A program made the translations under genes and the position numbers. Of a DNA stretch of 64,000 nucleotides, positions 30,661-54,354 are shown piece by piece (position 1 is the first letter of the stretch; every line of letters starts with the position of its first letter). This stretch comes from Octopus vulgaris (Eukaryota): contig OX597814.1 in assembly GCA_951406725.2 (NCBI GenBank), positions 16,988,001 to 17,052,000 on the forward strand, read 5' to 3'. The notes beneath the pieces were generated by a model. It saw only the letters and a program-made list of their open reading frames with translations. It searched no databases and was not told the DNA's origin.

Positions 30661-30880
30661 ACCTTTCATCGGATCTCCAAGAATCGAACTTTCTTCAATG
30701 CAGTTAATCTTAAACCCTCTTTTGTATCTACCCCTTTTGATGTTTGGGAATTCTCTGATGTTTTTTCGGCTGACGAGTACGAGCCATCTGTATTTACTGC
30801 ATTTTTTGTAGCTTATTAAAGATGTCCTCGTACGAAACAATTGTACCGAGATTTTAATCCATTCTTGTTGCTTTTTTCCT
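30661..30880 (+). mobile_element. 5'-truncated Penelope-like 3' end inserted in (TA)n
   Basis: About 220 bp flanked on both sides by (TA)n and containing an intact hammerhead motif. Confidence 0.6.
30764..30851 (+). ncRNA. Type I hammerhead ribozyme with palindromic minimal stem III
   Basis: tttcgg-CTGACGA-gtacgag...ctcgtac-GAAA-caattg-TA-ccgaga. Stem I tttcgg/ccgaga, 7-bp stem II plus extension, all core nucleotides present, GUA cleavage triplet. Confidence 0.88.
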
Positions 30881-31479
30881 ATATATATATATATATATAT
30901 ATATATATATATATATATATATATATATATATATATATATATCACATTCTCATACACACCATCATGTCAGTAATGAACTATAGAGTGAATAAGCATTATC
31001 GCTTTAGTGGAGTACCTACCATCTATCTGAGCAATGTCTGTTGGTGTATAGGGTTATGAGCATCAAAACAAAACGAAAGCATAAACTGAACCTATAGCAT
31101 TCAAAGTCTACTTTTAAGAGTGATTTGTCATTTACTTCGTTCCCAAAACTACCAACTAATTGGGCCTCATTGCGAGGTTAGTACTAATCGTATTCCAACA
31201 CTTTCGATTAGCTCAATTAACTGGACACTTGCTGAATATTATTAGTAAACATGTTTGTATTGTATCTCACTTGAAGAGAGTCTGGCGTAAATACGATCAG
31301 AGGAAATGGCAGTAACGTACATAAAAATCAAACATAGACAAAAATATGGTTGATATATTTACAGCTTGACGCTAATAGAAAGTGACAGACATATGAATGT
31401 GTATTTACGTACGTGTAAGAGAGCGTGTGTGTGATTGTGTCAGGCAGTGCGTGTTTGTCTGTGTGTGTGTGTGCTTGTC

Positions 31480-31627
31480 ATACTTAAATTTTTTATGAGT
31501 GTGTCACAAATTGCATAATTGTGTGTTAGTCTCCAGCTAGATTCATGAGGTGTTTGGAGTCATAGGTGAATGATTGTTTCGTTAATCTGGAAATCGACAC
31601 TATGGCACCCTTCTTTATGGGACTAAA
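31480..31627. repeat. About 150-bp dispersed repeat, copy 2
   Basis: Diverged copy of 28325-28478. Confidence 0.7.
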
Positions 31628-31701
31628 GCTAAACAATATTTCTCTGATTATTTGTGTGTGTGTATAGTGTTTGTGTATGGGTGCCTATATACATCATATA
31701 A

Positions 31702-32094
31702 TCTTTATATATAAAAGTGAAGTTGTGTGTCTGTCTCCTACGATTTAGATTCCTAACTACTCCCACATTTTGCGGTGCAGTTTAATCAAAAGCGGGTATC
31801 TTATAGTCGTGATTCACATCGAGCTCTTCTTGGTATTAGCGCGCGTCTACGATGAGTCTACGATTAAAAAAAAATTACCATAATTTTTCAGTATTTTTAA
31901 TGCATTTTTTCGCTATTATATAAGGGAAGTAACTCTCTAAAAATGTATTATTAAATCTCAGAACGTAAAAAGCTACAGTAACACCCCCCTTTGTGGTTAG
32001 CCATATTGAGATGGTTATTATACTTTACATCTCTAAAAATGCTTATATAGTTATTTGCCTTACAAACCCGAGCAACGCCGGGTGATACTGCTAG
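31702..32094 (+). mobile_element. Non-autonomous Helitron, complete, with a variant internal segment
   Basis: A|TCtttatatataaaag...cccgagcaacgccggg...CTAG|T. Confidence 0.88.
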
Positions 32095-32114
32095 TATATA
32101 TATATATGAATAAG

Positions 32115-32343
32115 GGCGGCGAGTTGGCAGGCACGTTAGCGCGCCAGGCGAAATGCTTAGCGGTATGTCGTCTGTCGTTACGTTCTGAGTTCAAATTCTG
32201 CCGAGGTCGACTTTGCCTTTCATGTTTCGGGGTCGATAAATAAAGTACCAGTTTCGCACTGGAGTCGATGTAGTCGACTTATTCCATTTGTCTGTCGTTG
32301 CTATCCCCTCTATTTTTAGCCCTTTGAGGGCAATAAGGAAATA
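32115..32343 (+). mobile_element. SINE, ggcggcgagctggcag family
   Basis: Homologous to the 30233 and 57042 copies. Confidence 0.88.
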
Positions 32344-51161: not shown

Positions 51162-51254
51162 TATTTCATTCTACACGTGTTTCGAAAGGCACAAATTACC
51201 AAAATCCGATGGAATAATGGGACCATATTGTGTCTTTCTCTTCAGGAAGAAAAT
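51162..51254 (-). ncRNA. Type I hammerhead ribozyme, left-arm copy
   Basis: Reverse complement of 53935-54027. Confidence 0.82.
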
Positions 51255-51843
51255 AGGAAATCCGTTGGAAAAACAAAAACAGAACAGAGGCGGAGCAAAA
51301 ACAAATCGAACTATGCTCCTAAGAGCCCATGGCGAAACTGTTTATCAGTGTATGTTGAGAACTGGTGGCTGAAGAATTCAACGGGTCAGGCATCGGTCAA
51401 TCATGTGGGTGAGGGGGCGTAGATGTTCTTTGTGACCGAGAATAAAGTTCTGACTATTTAAGGAATATTGGATGTTTTATAAGGGGCGAGAAAAAATCTA
51501 CTTAGAGACGTGTGTGTGTGTATACTGTTCTATATACGTGTGTGTTGGCGTAGGGGTAGAAAACATTTTTTGTGTACGTGTGTGCGTTTGATCGTTCGGC
51601 TGTCAGTGGCTACTGCCGTGATGACCGTTGGGTGGCAGAAAAAAAAATATATATATCATGTTTTATGTGTGTGTGTGTTCTCATCTAAACCTGCCTTGTC
51701 AAGGAAACCCCCCGCTGTGAAAAAACCAAGCCCCGTTTGTCTTACAGGAGTAATTCCCCTTGCAGTGGTTAATCGTAGATATCTTAAAGGCTATTTCAGA
51801 ATTTGTTACCAAGGGTTATGGGTGCCGGTATTATTTATAAACG

Positions 51844-53007
51844 CTATTTAAAAGCCAGATAAGTGTAACGCCGCCAATGGGGGCATCGAAAAGCCGACTG
51901 TAAAAGCCCGTTTACCATCCGGCCTCTGGCAAACAAAATATGGAAGAGTTCGGAGACACAAAGGTTGCACTGCCTTCTGCCCCTATCAAATGGGAGGGCC
52001 ACCGACAAAATTGACCATTCCAGCCTGTAGCTTAAGTTCGTATCCTTCAGTCGCCATATTAGCTTACTGAGTCCCGTGGTCTGGCGCTTGTTCATGTCCC
52101 GAAAAGTTGCGTAATGGTTGGAGACACGCAAAGACAATCTTGAGGATGAGGCCCCTACATAAGTGAAGACATCTGAGTCCGTGTAAACCTTGCATTGGTA
52201 GACGGCGTTTTTGATCTTGGAGTTCGCCGACGTGAATCTAATTCTGCTAGGATTAGTTTCTGAAATTAGAACTGCGTTCCTGTCACTATATTCGTTCCGA
52301 GACCTGCAGCCGCTTACTACTCTATTTTCCACTACGTCACTATTAACTATAGGAATAACCCCTGATTCTCCACTATCTATCAAAGTGCTGTCATTGCTAC
52401 TGCCCGTGGTGCTGCTATTGCGGGAAATGATGCTGGGGTTGCTATTGGGGCTCTCTACCCTACTCCCATTGTTACCGTCAACCACAACACCCCTATTTAT
52501 AACTATACCCCTAGTGGGTACTCCCTGGCTGGAGCTGAGATTATGTGTCACTGTACTGGCTCTCATATCATTATTACTACTATAATTATTCCTACTGAGC
52601 ATTAAACCGGGAGCGGAAGAGGCTGTGCCTCCGGAAAAAGGTGATAGGGTCTTAGTAAGTAGCCTATTATTATGGGAGGCGATTATCTGGGCGAGGTTTT
52701 TAGTGTTGGAGAAAGCTATCCTAACTTTATGCGAGTTAACCGTGGAGTAATATTTGGAATTTCTGGGGAAGTTATTGGCGATGGCTTGTCTAAACATGAG
52801 GGGGAGGTTAGTTCTAATCTGCTTACCAAAGGGGATTACAAACCATATATGCTTATTCCTATCAGTGTGATGGATCGGGACGCCAGCTCTCGCATTCGGG
52901 TGGGTGATTCTCGGATGAATGACGGGTCTTGGGTTAGTGTAAGACCTCCCGGACCGATAATTATCCTTGTTCGCTAAATTAAATGCGGGAGCGACTACCC
53001 CGGCATC
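51844..53007 (-). CDS. C-terminal part of a Penelope-like ORF: post-RT region plus GIY-YIG endonuclease (5'-truncated, no RT core)
   Basis: Uninterrupted frame with IWFVIPF.K.I.TN, VRIAFS..KNL..II.SHN, AVYQCKV...TYVGAS (GIY-YIG), R.R..NH, TGLSKLIW.LK, CNLCVSE, CPH. The ATG of the listed 394-aa ORF lies in the inverted arm and is an artefact. Confidence 0.85.
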   Translation of the reverse strand, partial: DAGVVAPAFNLANKDNYRSGRSYTNPRPVIHPRITHPNARAGVPIHHTDRNKHIWFVIPFGKQIRTNLPLMFRQAIANNFPRNSKYYSTVNSHKVRIAFSNTKNLAQIIASHNNRLLTKTLSPFSGGTASSAPGLMLSRNNYSSNNDMRASTVTHNLSSSQGVPTRGIVINRGVVVDGNNGSRVESPNSNPSIISRNSSTTGSSNDSTLIDSGESGVIPIVNSDVVENRVVSGCRSRNEYSDRNAVLISETNPSRIRFTSANSKIKNAVYQCKVYTDSDVFTYVGASSSRLSLRVSNHYATFRDMNKRQTTGLSKLIWRLKDTNLSYRLEWSILSVALPFDRGRRQCNLCVSELFHILFARGRMVNGLLQSAFRCPHWRRYTYLAFK

Positions 53008-53934
53008 CACGGACTCAGATGTCTTCACTTATGTAGGGGCCTCATCCTCAAGATTGTCTTTGCGTGTCTCCAACCATTACGCAACTTTTCGGGACATGAA
53101 CAAGCGCCAGACCACGGGACTCAGTAAGCTAATATGGCGACTGAAGGATACGAACTTAAGCTACAGGCTGGAATGGTCAATTTTGTCGGTGGCCCTCCCA
53201 TTTGATAGGGGCAGAAGGCAGTGCAACCTTTGTGTCTCCGAACTCTTCCATATTTTGTTTGCCAGAGGCCGGATGGTAAACGGGCTTTTACAGTCGGCTT
53301 TTCGATGCCCCCATTGGCGGCGTTACACTTATCTGGCTTTTAAATAGCGTTTATAAATAATACCGGCACCCATAACCCTTGGTAACAAATTCTGAAATAG
53401 CCTTTAAGATATCTACGATTAACCACTGCAAGGGGAATTACTCCTGTAAGACAAACGGGGCTTGGTTTTTTCACAGCGGGGGGTTTCCTTGACAAGGCAG
53501 GTTTAGATGAGAACACACACACACATAAAACATGATGTATATTTTTTTTTCTGCCACCCAACGGTCATCACGGCAGTAGCCACTGACAGCCGAACGATCA
53601 AACGCACACACGTACACAAAAAATGTTTTCTACCCCTACGCCAACACACACGTATATAGAACAGTATACACACACACACGTCTCTAAGTAGATTTTTTCT
53701 CGCCCCTTATAAAACATCCAATATTCCTTAAATAGTCAGAACTTTATTCTCGGTCACAAAGAACATCTACGCCCCCTCACCCACATGATTGACCGATGCC
53801 TGACCCGTTGAATTCTTCAGCCACCGGTTCTCAACATACACTGATAAACAGTTTCGCCATGGGCTCTTAGGAGCATAGTTCGATTTGTTTTTGCTCCGCC
53901 TCTGTTCTGTTTTTGTTTTTCCAACGGATTTCCT

Positions 53935-54027
53935 ATTTTCTTCCTGAAGAGAAAGACACAATATGGTCCCATTATTCCATCGGATTTTGGTAATTTGTGC
54001 CTTTCGAAACACGTGTAGAATGAAATA
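53935..54027 (+). ncRNA. Type I hammerhead ribozyme, right-arm copy
   Basis: ttc-CTGAAGA-gaaagacacaa...ttgtgcctttc-GAAA-cacgtg-TA-gaa. Stem II has 10/11 pairs, stem III is the palindrome ACACGTGT, GUA triplet. Confidence 0.82.
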
Positions 54028-54259
54028 AAACGATTTCTGTTCAATCTGCGTTCAGCTCCATTTCTTCAATTCACCAATAATGTTCTAATTTCAATTATCC
54101 GCACCAACGCACGGTTGCAACACCATATGTACCTCCAACCGTGCTGTTTTACTGCTGTGATTTTTGCTACTAAGGTATCGGTTAAACTTTTGATTAATCT
54201 ACTACAAGATTATTCATCTTTCTATTTCACATAATATATATATATATATATATGTATAT

Positions 54260-54354
54260 AAGCAAATAAATGGAATTGAACGCAGGTGTTATTCAAATAC
54301 TTTTACTTTCGACATATGTTTCGAAAATAATTTTCCATGTTAACTGTATCCATT
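54260..54354 (-). mobile_element. Short Penelope-like 3' end with the 3' half of a hammerhead
   Basis: Resembles the 51105 arm terminus (aaatgga..tgaacgcag). The minus strand reads tttc-GAAA-catatg-TC-gaaa. Flanked by (TA)n. Confidence 0.6.

Follow-up and report, generated by a model that had tools for sequence, protein, structure and literature searches.

The DNA analysed here, referred to as the window, is a stretch of 64,000 nucleotides from Octopus vulgaris (GenBank assembly GCA_951406725.2, contig OX597814.1, positions 16,988,001–17,052,000, forward strand). It contains predicted hammerhead ribozymes, assigned to families A, B and (as a fragment) C, which are carried by Penelope-like elements (PLEs) and have a short, palindromic stem III. 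A sequence-only reading of the window had proposed that this palindrome acts as a family-specific dimerisation code. The features concerned are as follows, with coordinates counted from the first letter of the window.

30661–30882, + strand: 5'-truncated 3' end (222 bp) of a family A PLE, then (TA)n; 96.8–99% identical to many genomic copies.
30764–30851, + strand: predicted family A type I hammerhead, with core CTGACGA at 30770–30776, stem II at 30777–30833 (57 nt) and GAAA.
38356–38428, + strand: a further core with long stem II, absent from the sequence-only reading, with the 9-nt quasi-palindrome ACAAATTGT and GUU.
51102–53008, − strand: left arm of a family B element, 5'-truncated, with the 3' part of the open reading frame (ORF), the 3' UTR, a hammerhead and a short tail; 98.8–99.3% identical to the 3,624-bp tandem unit in locus L091.
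51162–51254, − strand: predicted family B hammerhead, mirror copy, with core at 51245 and palindrome ACACGTGT; sense to the ORF and about 600 nt past its stop.
51844–53028, − strand: open frame of 394 codons, the C-terminal part of the 867-aa reverse transcriptase (RT) and endonuclease protein of family B.
53008–54240, + strand: right arm of the family B element, inverted, a more truncated 3' end with a longer tail; maps to unit positions 2689–3624 and 1–301.
53935–54027, + strand: predicted family B hammerhead, with core CTGAAGA at 53944–53950 and stem II at 53951–54005 (55 nt).
54260–54328, − strand: 3' half of a family C hammerhead and tail, the stub of a family C element; core missing.

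The motifs with cores at 30770, 53944 and 51245 each contain the CUGANGA core, GAAA and an NUH triplet in that order, together with an open stem I, and their stems I and II are paired with G10.1–C11.1, as in type I hammerheads. In family A the palindrome ACAATTGT occupies 30837–30844 and is followed by GUA, with a predicted cut after 30845; in the + strand copy of family B, ACACGTGT lies at 54009–54016, again before GUA, with a predicted cut after 54017. The family C stub has GAAACATATGTC at 54311–54322 on the − strand, comprising the palindrome ACATATGT (54312–54319) and GUC, with no core upstream; without a core it cannot cut alone. The positions that the sequence-only reading had given for three full motifs and this half motif were reproduced in every part (cores, spacers, palindromes and triplets), and the half motif genuinely belongs to a third family, as a copy truncated at its 5' end and 84–92% identical to loci L061, L114, L118 and L128. 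In families A and B of the window G10.1 directly follows A9 with no extra base, and stem II is 55–57 nt long; these two traits make the motif a variant, not the minimal form, of the dimer-type PLE hammerhead. The fold of stem II has z = −4.89 for the family A hammerhead, while for family B the values are −1.73 for stem II and −0.39 for the whole motif. A scan of the window against Rfam at E ≤ 1 returned 69 matches, none of them a hammerhead. Judged by sequence, the three complete motifs are type I hammerheads, for which cleavage is predicted. The additional motif at 38356–38428 has just two contiguous stem I pairs and a minimum-energy fold that is not a hammerhead, and it is probably decayed. 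It belongs to a recurring family among the matches with long stem II and a 9–10-nt palindrome.

The hammerheads sit at the 3' ends or terminal repeats of Hydra-like PLEs, and the earlier association of the type I hammerheads with Penelope elements was borne out. The two family B arms of the window are one inverted insertion, 99.5% identical across 1,082 bp, and the window elements are inserted into (TA)n. In a family B tandem array the 3,624-bp unit carries an 867-aa frame; the hammerhead lies 596 nt past its stop, and 350 nt separate the predicted cut from the next frame. Elsewhere, at least four direct tandem family B units lie 3,624 bp apart (L024, L092, C1:119514324–119525357), one with an intact 867-aa frame. 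The family B protein comprises RT and then a C-terminal endonuclease in a single ORF; DKT is present, RWL replaces RWK, the motifs match those of Hydra-1_Obim when compared by eye, and the closest named database matches are from Argonauta. We take the C-terminal part to be an endonuclease from its position and a GIY-YIG-like pattern; a search of the 394-aa fragment against Pfam (E ≤ 1) matched no family. The family A protein is known in pieces only, which are 32–50% identical to the family B protein. It keeps the CxCX5C linker, which is absent from family B, and for this reason family B is called Hydra-like. In both proteins (L269, L270, L091), RT and endonuclease are separated by long low-complexity insertions rich in Asn and Ser, far longer in family A. 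Families B and C fall into one sequence lineage under loose clustering. Protein sequence of this kind was found upstream of the hammerhead in nine of 55 clusters of fetched loci, most copies being too truncated to tell.

The Hydra clade of PLEs described by Craig et al. (2021; PMC8557442) includes Hydra-1_Obim. As far as its text and tables go, members of this clade share with the octopus elements an RT followed by a C-terminal endonuclease, DKT, (TA)n targets, inverted 5' copies and a hammerhead near the 3' end, whereas the hammerheads listed there have a loop II of 3–10 nt and stem III regions of 9–10 nt. Family B differs further in its 3.6-kb unit and in lacking the CxCX5C linker, which family A has. 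An assignment to Naiad, considered because of a remark on 'HHR_half_core' in the same tables and text, was ruled out by the C-terminal position of the endonuclease. Two other kinds of repeat in the genome appear retrozyme-like. Tandem units of 534 bp (L137, L087–L089, L125) carry a long-stem-II hammerhead with an AATT loop and have no protein match; the 5' stem I arm of this unit is complementary to the 3' arm of family A, the converse being less so. Tandem and inverted repeats of 353 bp (L256–L262) carry a short-stem-II hammerhead with a TCGA loop.

The genome was searched with a pattern for a hammerhead with a 40–65-nt gap, in which AC...GU is required by the pattern itself, and with the reversed pattern as control; loop statistics refer to the first 100 listed matches, all fetched, which represent the first 20 Mb of contig C1. 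The pattern gave 13,344 matches against 31 for the control; counted by family pattern, family A has 603 copies and family B 1,738. Of the first 100 matches, 79 have a 4-nt loop III that forms a Watson–Crick palindrome, for which chance alone would give one in 16; in a further 16 the loop is self-complementary with G·U, and in five it is mismatched. With G·U allowed, 95 are therefore self-complementary at positions 15.2–16.2 plus loop III, as in dimer-type PLE hammerheads. At least three contiguous stem I pairs, which the pattern does not demand, are present in 93. The excess over the control, the frequency of palindromes and these unasked stem I pairs together show that the motifs are not chance matches.

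Eleven kinds of perfect palindrome occur among these 100 copies, which loose sequence clustering divides into 16 lineages, and the outer loop pair varies as well (GATC, GTAC, CTAG, TGCA, GGCC and others). The ACA-NN-TGT that the sequence-only reading had regarded as a shared stem III is thus a small-sample effect; what is constant is AC-NNNN-GU, with both loop pairs varying. Nor do a long stem II and an 8-nt palindrome define a distinct subtype, as had been proposed, since the two traits are not tied: the 8-nt register also occurs with a short stem II (2,160 matches against 307 in the control), and a long stem II also occurs with a 9–10-nt palindrome (1,035 against 132).

The palindrome is kept through compensatory change while its central dinucleotide varies, as the sequence-only reading had held, and all four Watson–Crick centres (AT, TA, CG and GC) occur. 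The two centre bases are unable to pair within a monomer. Variants of the centre pair are far more often of the K-K (G/U) type than of the M-M (A/C) type (1,791 against 176), and among variants of the outer loop pair the G·U type again exceeds the A·C type (332 against 189). Substitutions counted in the flanks of four subfamilies show no bias towards the sense strand, the rare changes numbering 21 for A>G, 36 for T>C, 37 for C>T and 32 for G>A. Adenosine deaminase (ADAR) editing was considered as the origin of the G·U excess and rejected, the flanks showing no excess of A>G.

Young copies are almost never non-palindromic, in line with the earlier expectation: the first 100 family B copies all have ACGT, and the first 100 family A copies comprise, by hand count, 66 GATC, 31 AATT, three GATT and no AATC, that is, 97 perfect palindromes and three with a G·U pair. 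In a family A tree of 43 rows, built with the loop removed and no outgroup, four of the five GATT rows, which represent three independent loci, are placed between the AATT rows and a GATC clade (support 100/94). The distances are 6.7% for AATT–GATC, 3.4% for GATT–AATT and 4.1% for GATT–GATC. In the tree of the B/C lineage ATGT recurs in no clear order; it has long branches and a loop-biased sample and is not used as evidence. A long-stem-II family with a 10-nt palindrome, found at many sites on C1 and C2, also has the centre series AATT, GATT and GATC, with GATT apparently the commonest. Self-complementarity of the palindrome is likely to be under selection, with its exact letters drifting, and the change of palindrome in two compensatory steps, by way of a G·U form, inside one young family supports a selected pairing between two ribozymes.

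Predicted energies are consistent with such pairing. By nearest-neighbour energies, the window palindromes pair with themselves at −6.4 to −10.3 kcal/mol and with each other at −0.9 to −3.0 kcal/mol. GATT would pair with AATT at −6.1 and with GATC at −7.9 kcal/mol, whereas AATT–GATC reaches only −1.9 kcal/mol; similarly, ATGT is predicted to pair with both ACGT and ATAT. In family A the double hammerhead is the minimum-energy fold of the homodimer, at −55.2 kcal/mol against 2 × −24.3 kcal/mol for the monomers, and in family B the corresponding values are −40.7 and 2 × −15.9 kcal/mol. Within a monomer, stem III contributes a penalty or gain of merely 0.3–0.4 kcal/mol, far below the gain from dimerisation.

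It is probable that the hammerheads in PLE terminal repeats cut mainly as double hammerheads, with the self-complementarity of the palindrome selected and its letters drifting. A lone copy would have a stem III of only 2 bp, and a single hammerhead would stay mostly uncut. Two copies in one tandem transcript, such as that of the 3,624-bp family B unit, or two RNAs of the same lineage would join through their 8-nt palindromes and exchange the strands of stem I, producing two active cores; this double hammerhead would then free an RNA of unit length that begins 350 nt ahead of the ORF. The loop would shift among the 16 palindromes available to it, passing through G·U intermediates able to pair with both neighbours. 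Incompatibility between most lineages would follow as a side effect, owed to stem I more than to the palindrome. A mostly uncut single hammerhead fits the family B arms of the window, which run 70 and about 225 nt beyond the predicted cut site, and agrees with the finding, given in PMC11167929, that uncut RNA is the main template in vitro for a lizard element.

A number of observations weigh against double-hammerhead cutting or weaken the case for selection. The 10:1 ratio at the centre pair owes most of its size to ATGT in the B/C lineage, leaving few independent events, and the K-K and M-M counts include mismatched GG/TT and CC/AA. The ratio at the outer pair is modest, partly reflects neutral CpG decay and is diluted by decay after insertion. 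The family A tree has mostly weak branches and, for want of an outgroup, no fixed direction; a single duplicated locus accounts for two of its four intermediate GATT rows, and two rows, a GATT and a GATC, stand discordantly among AATT rows. The best dimer fold of family B (−44.1 kcal/mol) retains the palindrome duplex and not stem I. The family B copies in the window are inverted, so that one transcript strand has a single sense hammerhead, and the two arms of inverted insertions resemble, for the most part, copies of one template. Retrozyme hammerheads of invertebrates that have a tetraloop and 2 bp in stem III are reported, in the part of PMC7229834 that deals with them, to cut well as monomers. 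Finally, the argument for double-hammerhead cutting is built from sequence and predicted folds.

The last but one of these points bears on an alternative that we consider unlikely, in which the monomer itself cuts, aided by the element's protein or by a tertiary contact that the long stem II makes; dimer pairing would then have a secondary role, or one in bringing RNAs together within the ribonucleoprotein and not in catalysis. The two-pair stem III and tetraloop do resemble those efficient invertebrate monomers, and a lizard Penelope hammerhead requires its protein in order to cut, according to the section of PMC11167929 on this point. The stem II extension (42–64 nt) is also structured, folding in seven of seven groups as an extended hairpin with internal loops and compensatory pairs (mean z −1.3 to −3.3). 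Monomer cutting, however, gives no reason for the covariation of the two centre bases and could draw little on the energy of a monomer stem III. When stem II and the 3' flank were compared for a loop II pseudoknot and for the loop I–loop II tertiary contact of canonical forms, no consistent complementarity was seen, only stretches of 5–11 nt at varying sites that mostly compete with stem I or II, in a comparison that had no control. Upkeep of the palindrome at the DNA level, by a protein site or by template-switch repair of quasi-palindromes, is very improbable. Template switching could make both compensatory changes in one step, as in locus L044 described below, where the arms are otherwise near-identical. 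Yet such upkeep would treat the strands alike, whereas G·U-type variants exceed A·C-type variants amid symmetric flanking mutation, and the palindrome lies in the exact hammerhead register across unrelated lineages.

It is also doubtful that the palindrome is a selected signal for partner choice, a change in which would insulate a family or subfamily from cross-cleavage, parasitic retrozymes or recombination. There is a precedent in the dimerisation initiation signal found in HIV-1 (human immunodeficiency virus type 1), likewise a short, lineage-variable palindrome that biases the choice of RNA partner, as outlined in PMC3187697; that signal is a kissing loop for packaging and has been demonstrated experimentally, and the likeness is one of analogy. 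In the octopus, 92% of cross-lineage pairs are mismatched in the loop (296 of 3,685 are compatible, against 899 of 1,265 within lineages) and the window palindromes cross-pair poorly, which upholds part of the earlier claim that only same-family RNAs pair perfectly. The other part fails, as palindromes are shared between lineages. AATT, ACGT, GATC, ATAT, TGCA and others each occur in at least two sequence clusters; AATT is common to the 534-bp tandem repeat and family A, and ACGT to two lineages. A rule of one palindrome per family holds for family B and fails for family A, which has two mutually mismatched palindromes, AATT and GATC, and G·U forms bridge neighbouring palindrome states. This split of family A into two pools with poor predicted cross-pairing, GATC being the commoner, would suit a partner-choice signal, but the success of GATC could stem from its stronger self-pairing (−10.0 against −6.4 kcal/mol for AATT) without any code. 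Over-dispersion was not seen, with ten different palindromes in 12 lineages where 8.6 are expected at random (P = 0.22), a comparison of low power in which a tie hides a further shared GATC. The proposed family-specific dimerisation code is accordingly not supported, with palindromes common to several families and variable within families, and with no over-dispersion seen at that low power.

Stem I appears to matter more. The topology of a double hammerhead implies that stem I would form between the partners, and compatibility for a full double hammerhead was therefore scored on stem I and loop in 89 intact copies. Among 2,836 cross-lineage pairs, 70 passed for stem I, 252 for the loop and 18 for both, while 711 of 1,080 same-lineage pairs would allow a full double hammerhead. 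Stem I alone thus excludes 97.5% of cross-lineage pairs and, in this model, the swapped stem I discriminates lineages more than the palindrome does. The predicted specificity is explained by common descent and drift. The arms of inverted family A insertions share their palindrome in 29 of 30 cases, as partner choice would have it; their differences are mostly private, like those of copies of one template, and for that reason the agreement says nothing about partner choice. The exception is one inverted family A insertion (L044/L056, G000:C30:11152759–11153581), whose arms are near-identical over about 260 bp, yet carry GATC in one and AATT in the other; a template switch, gene conversion or the use of two templates may account for this. 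A more speculative extension, to which we give little weight, is that the palindrome and the swapped stem I form a partner-recognition module, and that the switch from AATT to GATC via GATT divides family A into two pools of RNA between which activation and recombination have ceased, either as ribozyme-driven lineage speciation or as escape from parasitic retrozymes sharing the old palindrome.

Several other features of the window and genome were noted. Window positions 1–21996 form a 22-kb satellite with a 13-bp unit (about 1,688 copies, 77% matches) and an extreme strand skew, followed by a 22-bp tandem repeat at 22097–22341. An interspersed repeat of about 250 bp, presumably a SINE (short interspersed element), is present in at least nine copies on both strands, at 30213–30464, 32095–32345, 35475–35659 and 54449–54702, with further sites at 57022–57273, 57632–57890, 58714–58960 and 59785–60212. 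Contigs from four runs, which do not reveal RNA ends, cover the stretch. At 53948–53974 six A>G changes cluster within the core and stem II of family B in one contig (run X9), guessed to be RNA; this is the pattern that A-to-I editing of an inverted repeat would leave, in this single contig. At L144 (3770–4435, + strand) an intronless frame of 221 codons lies between two duplicated family A copies; we take it to resemble dCMP deaminase.

Dimer-cleaving variants of PLE hammerheads with a short palindromic stem III, whose cleavage is improved in dimers, are said to have been described by Lünse, Weinberg and Breaker. The double hammerheads of newt and axolotl share these two properties, as summarised within PMC7229834. 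Cervera and De la Peña (2014; PMC4209133) reported minimal hammerheads with a palindromic helix III in the pLTRs of metazoan Penelope-like elements and proposed dimers and circularisation. As presented in their text and tables, these hammerheads agree with the octopus motifs in being of type I, in lying in pLTRs, in the consensus GAAAN-palindrome-NUH and in the proposed dimers; they differ in that A9 is usually followed by an extra base, missing from families A and B, and in a short-looped helix II of about 4–8 bp, where the octopus stem II covers 42–64 nt. Their Fig. S3 includes palindromes of 8–10 nt whose centres differ between families of one genome (CGCG and GGCC in Aedes; ACA-GUAC-UGU in Saccoglossus). 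Family-variable palindromes, a palindromic loop III and action as dimers are, on the evidence of that text, already in print. Neither a stem II of 42–64 nt nor the trajectory through G·U was found in the text and tables consulted from PMC4209133 and PMC8557442, or by literature search. The search likewise found no mixed dimers or palindrome code in PLE hammerheads, its coverage excluding subscription papers such as Lünse et al., and a 2026 preprint on retrozymes does not take the matter up in the text covered.

Judging by the test on the window, Rfam misses about 13,000 motifs of this kind. The in vitro activity on which the double-hammerhead model for Penelope elements rests is weak, and in one study cleavage was reportedly dispensable for insertion in vitro. 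The octopus genome gives evolutionary support for a selected pairing between two ribozymes in active lineages, and its naturally matched variants AATT, GATT and GATC on the same scaffold make both dimer dependence and partner choice directly testable.

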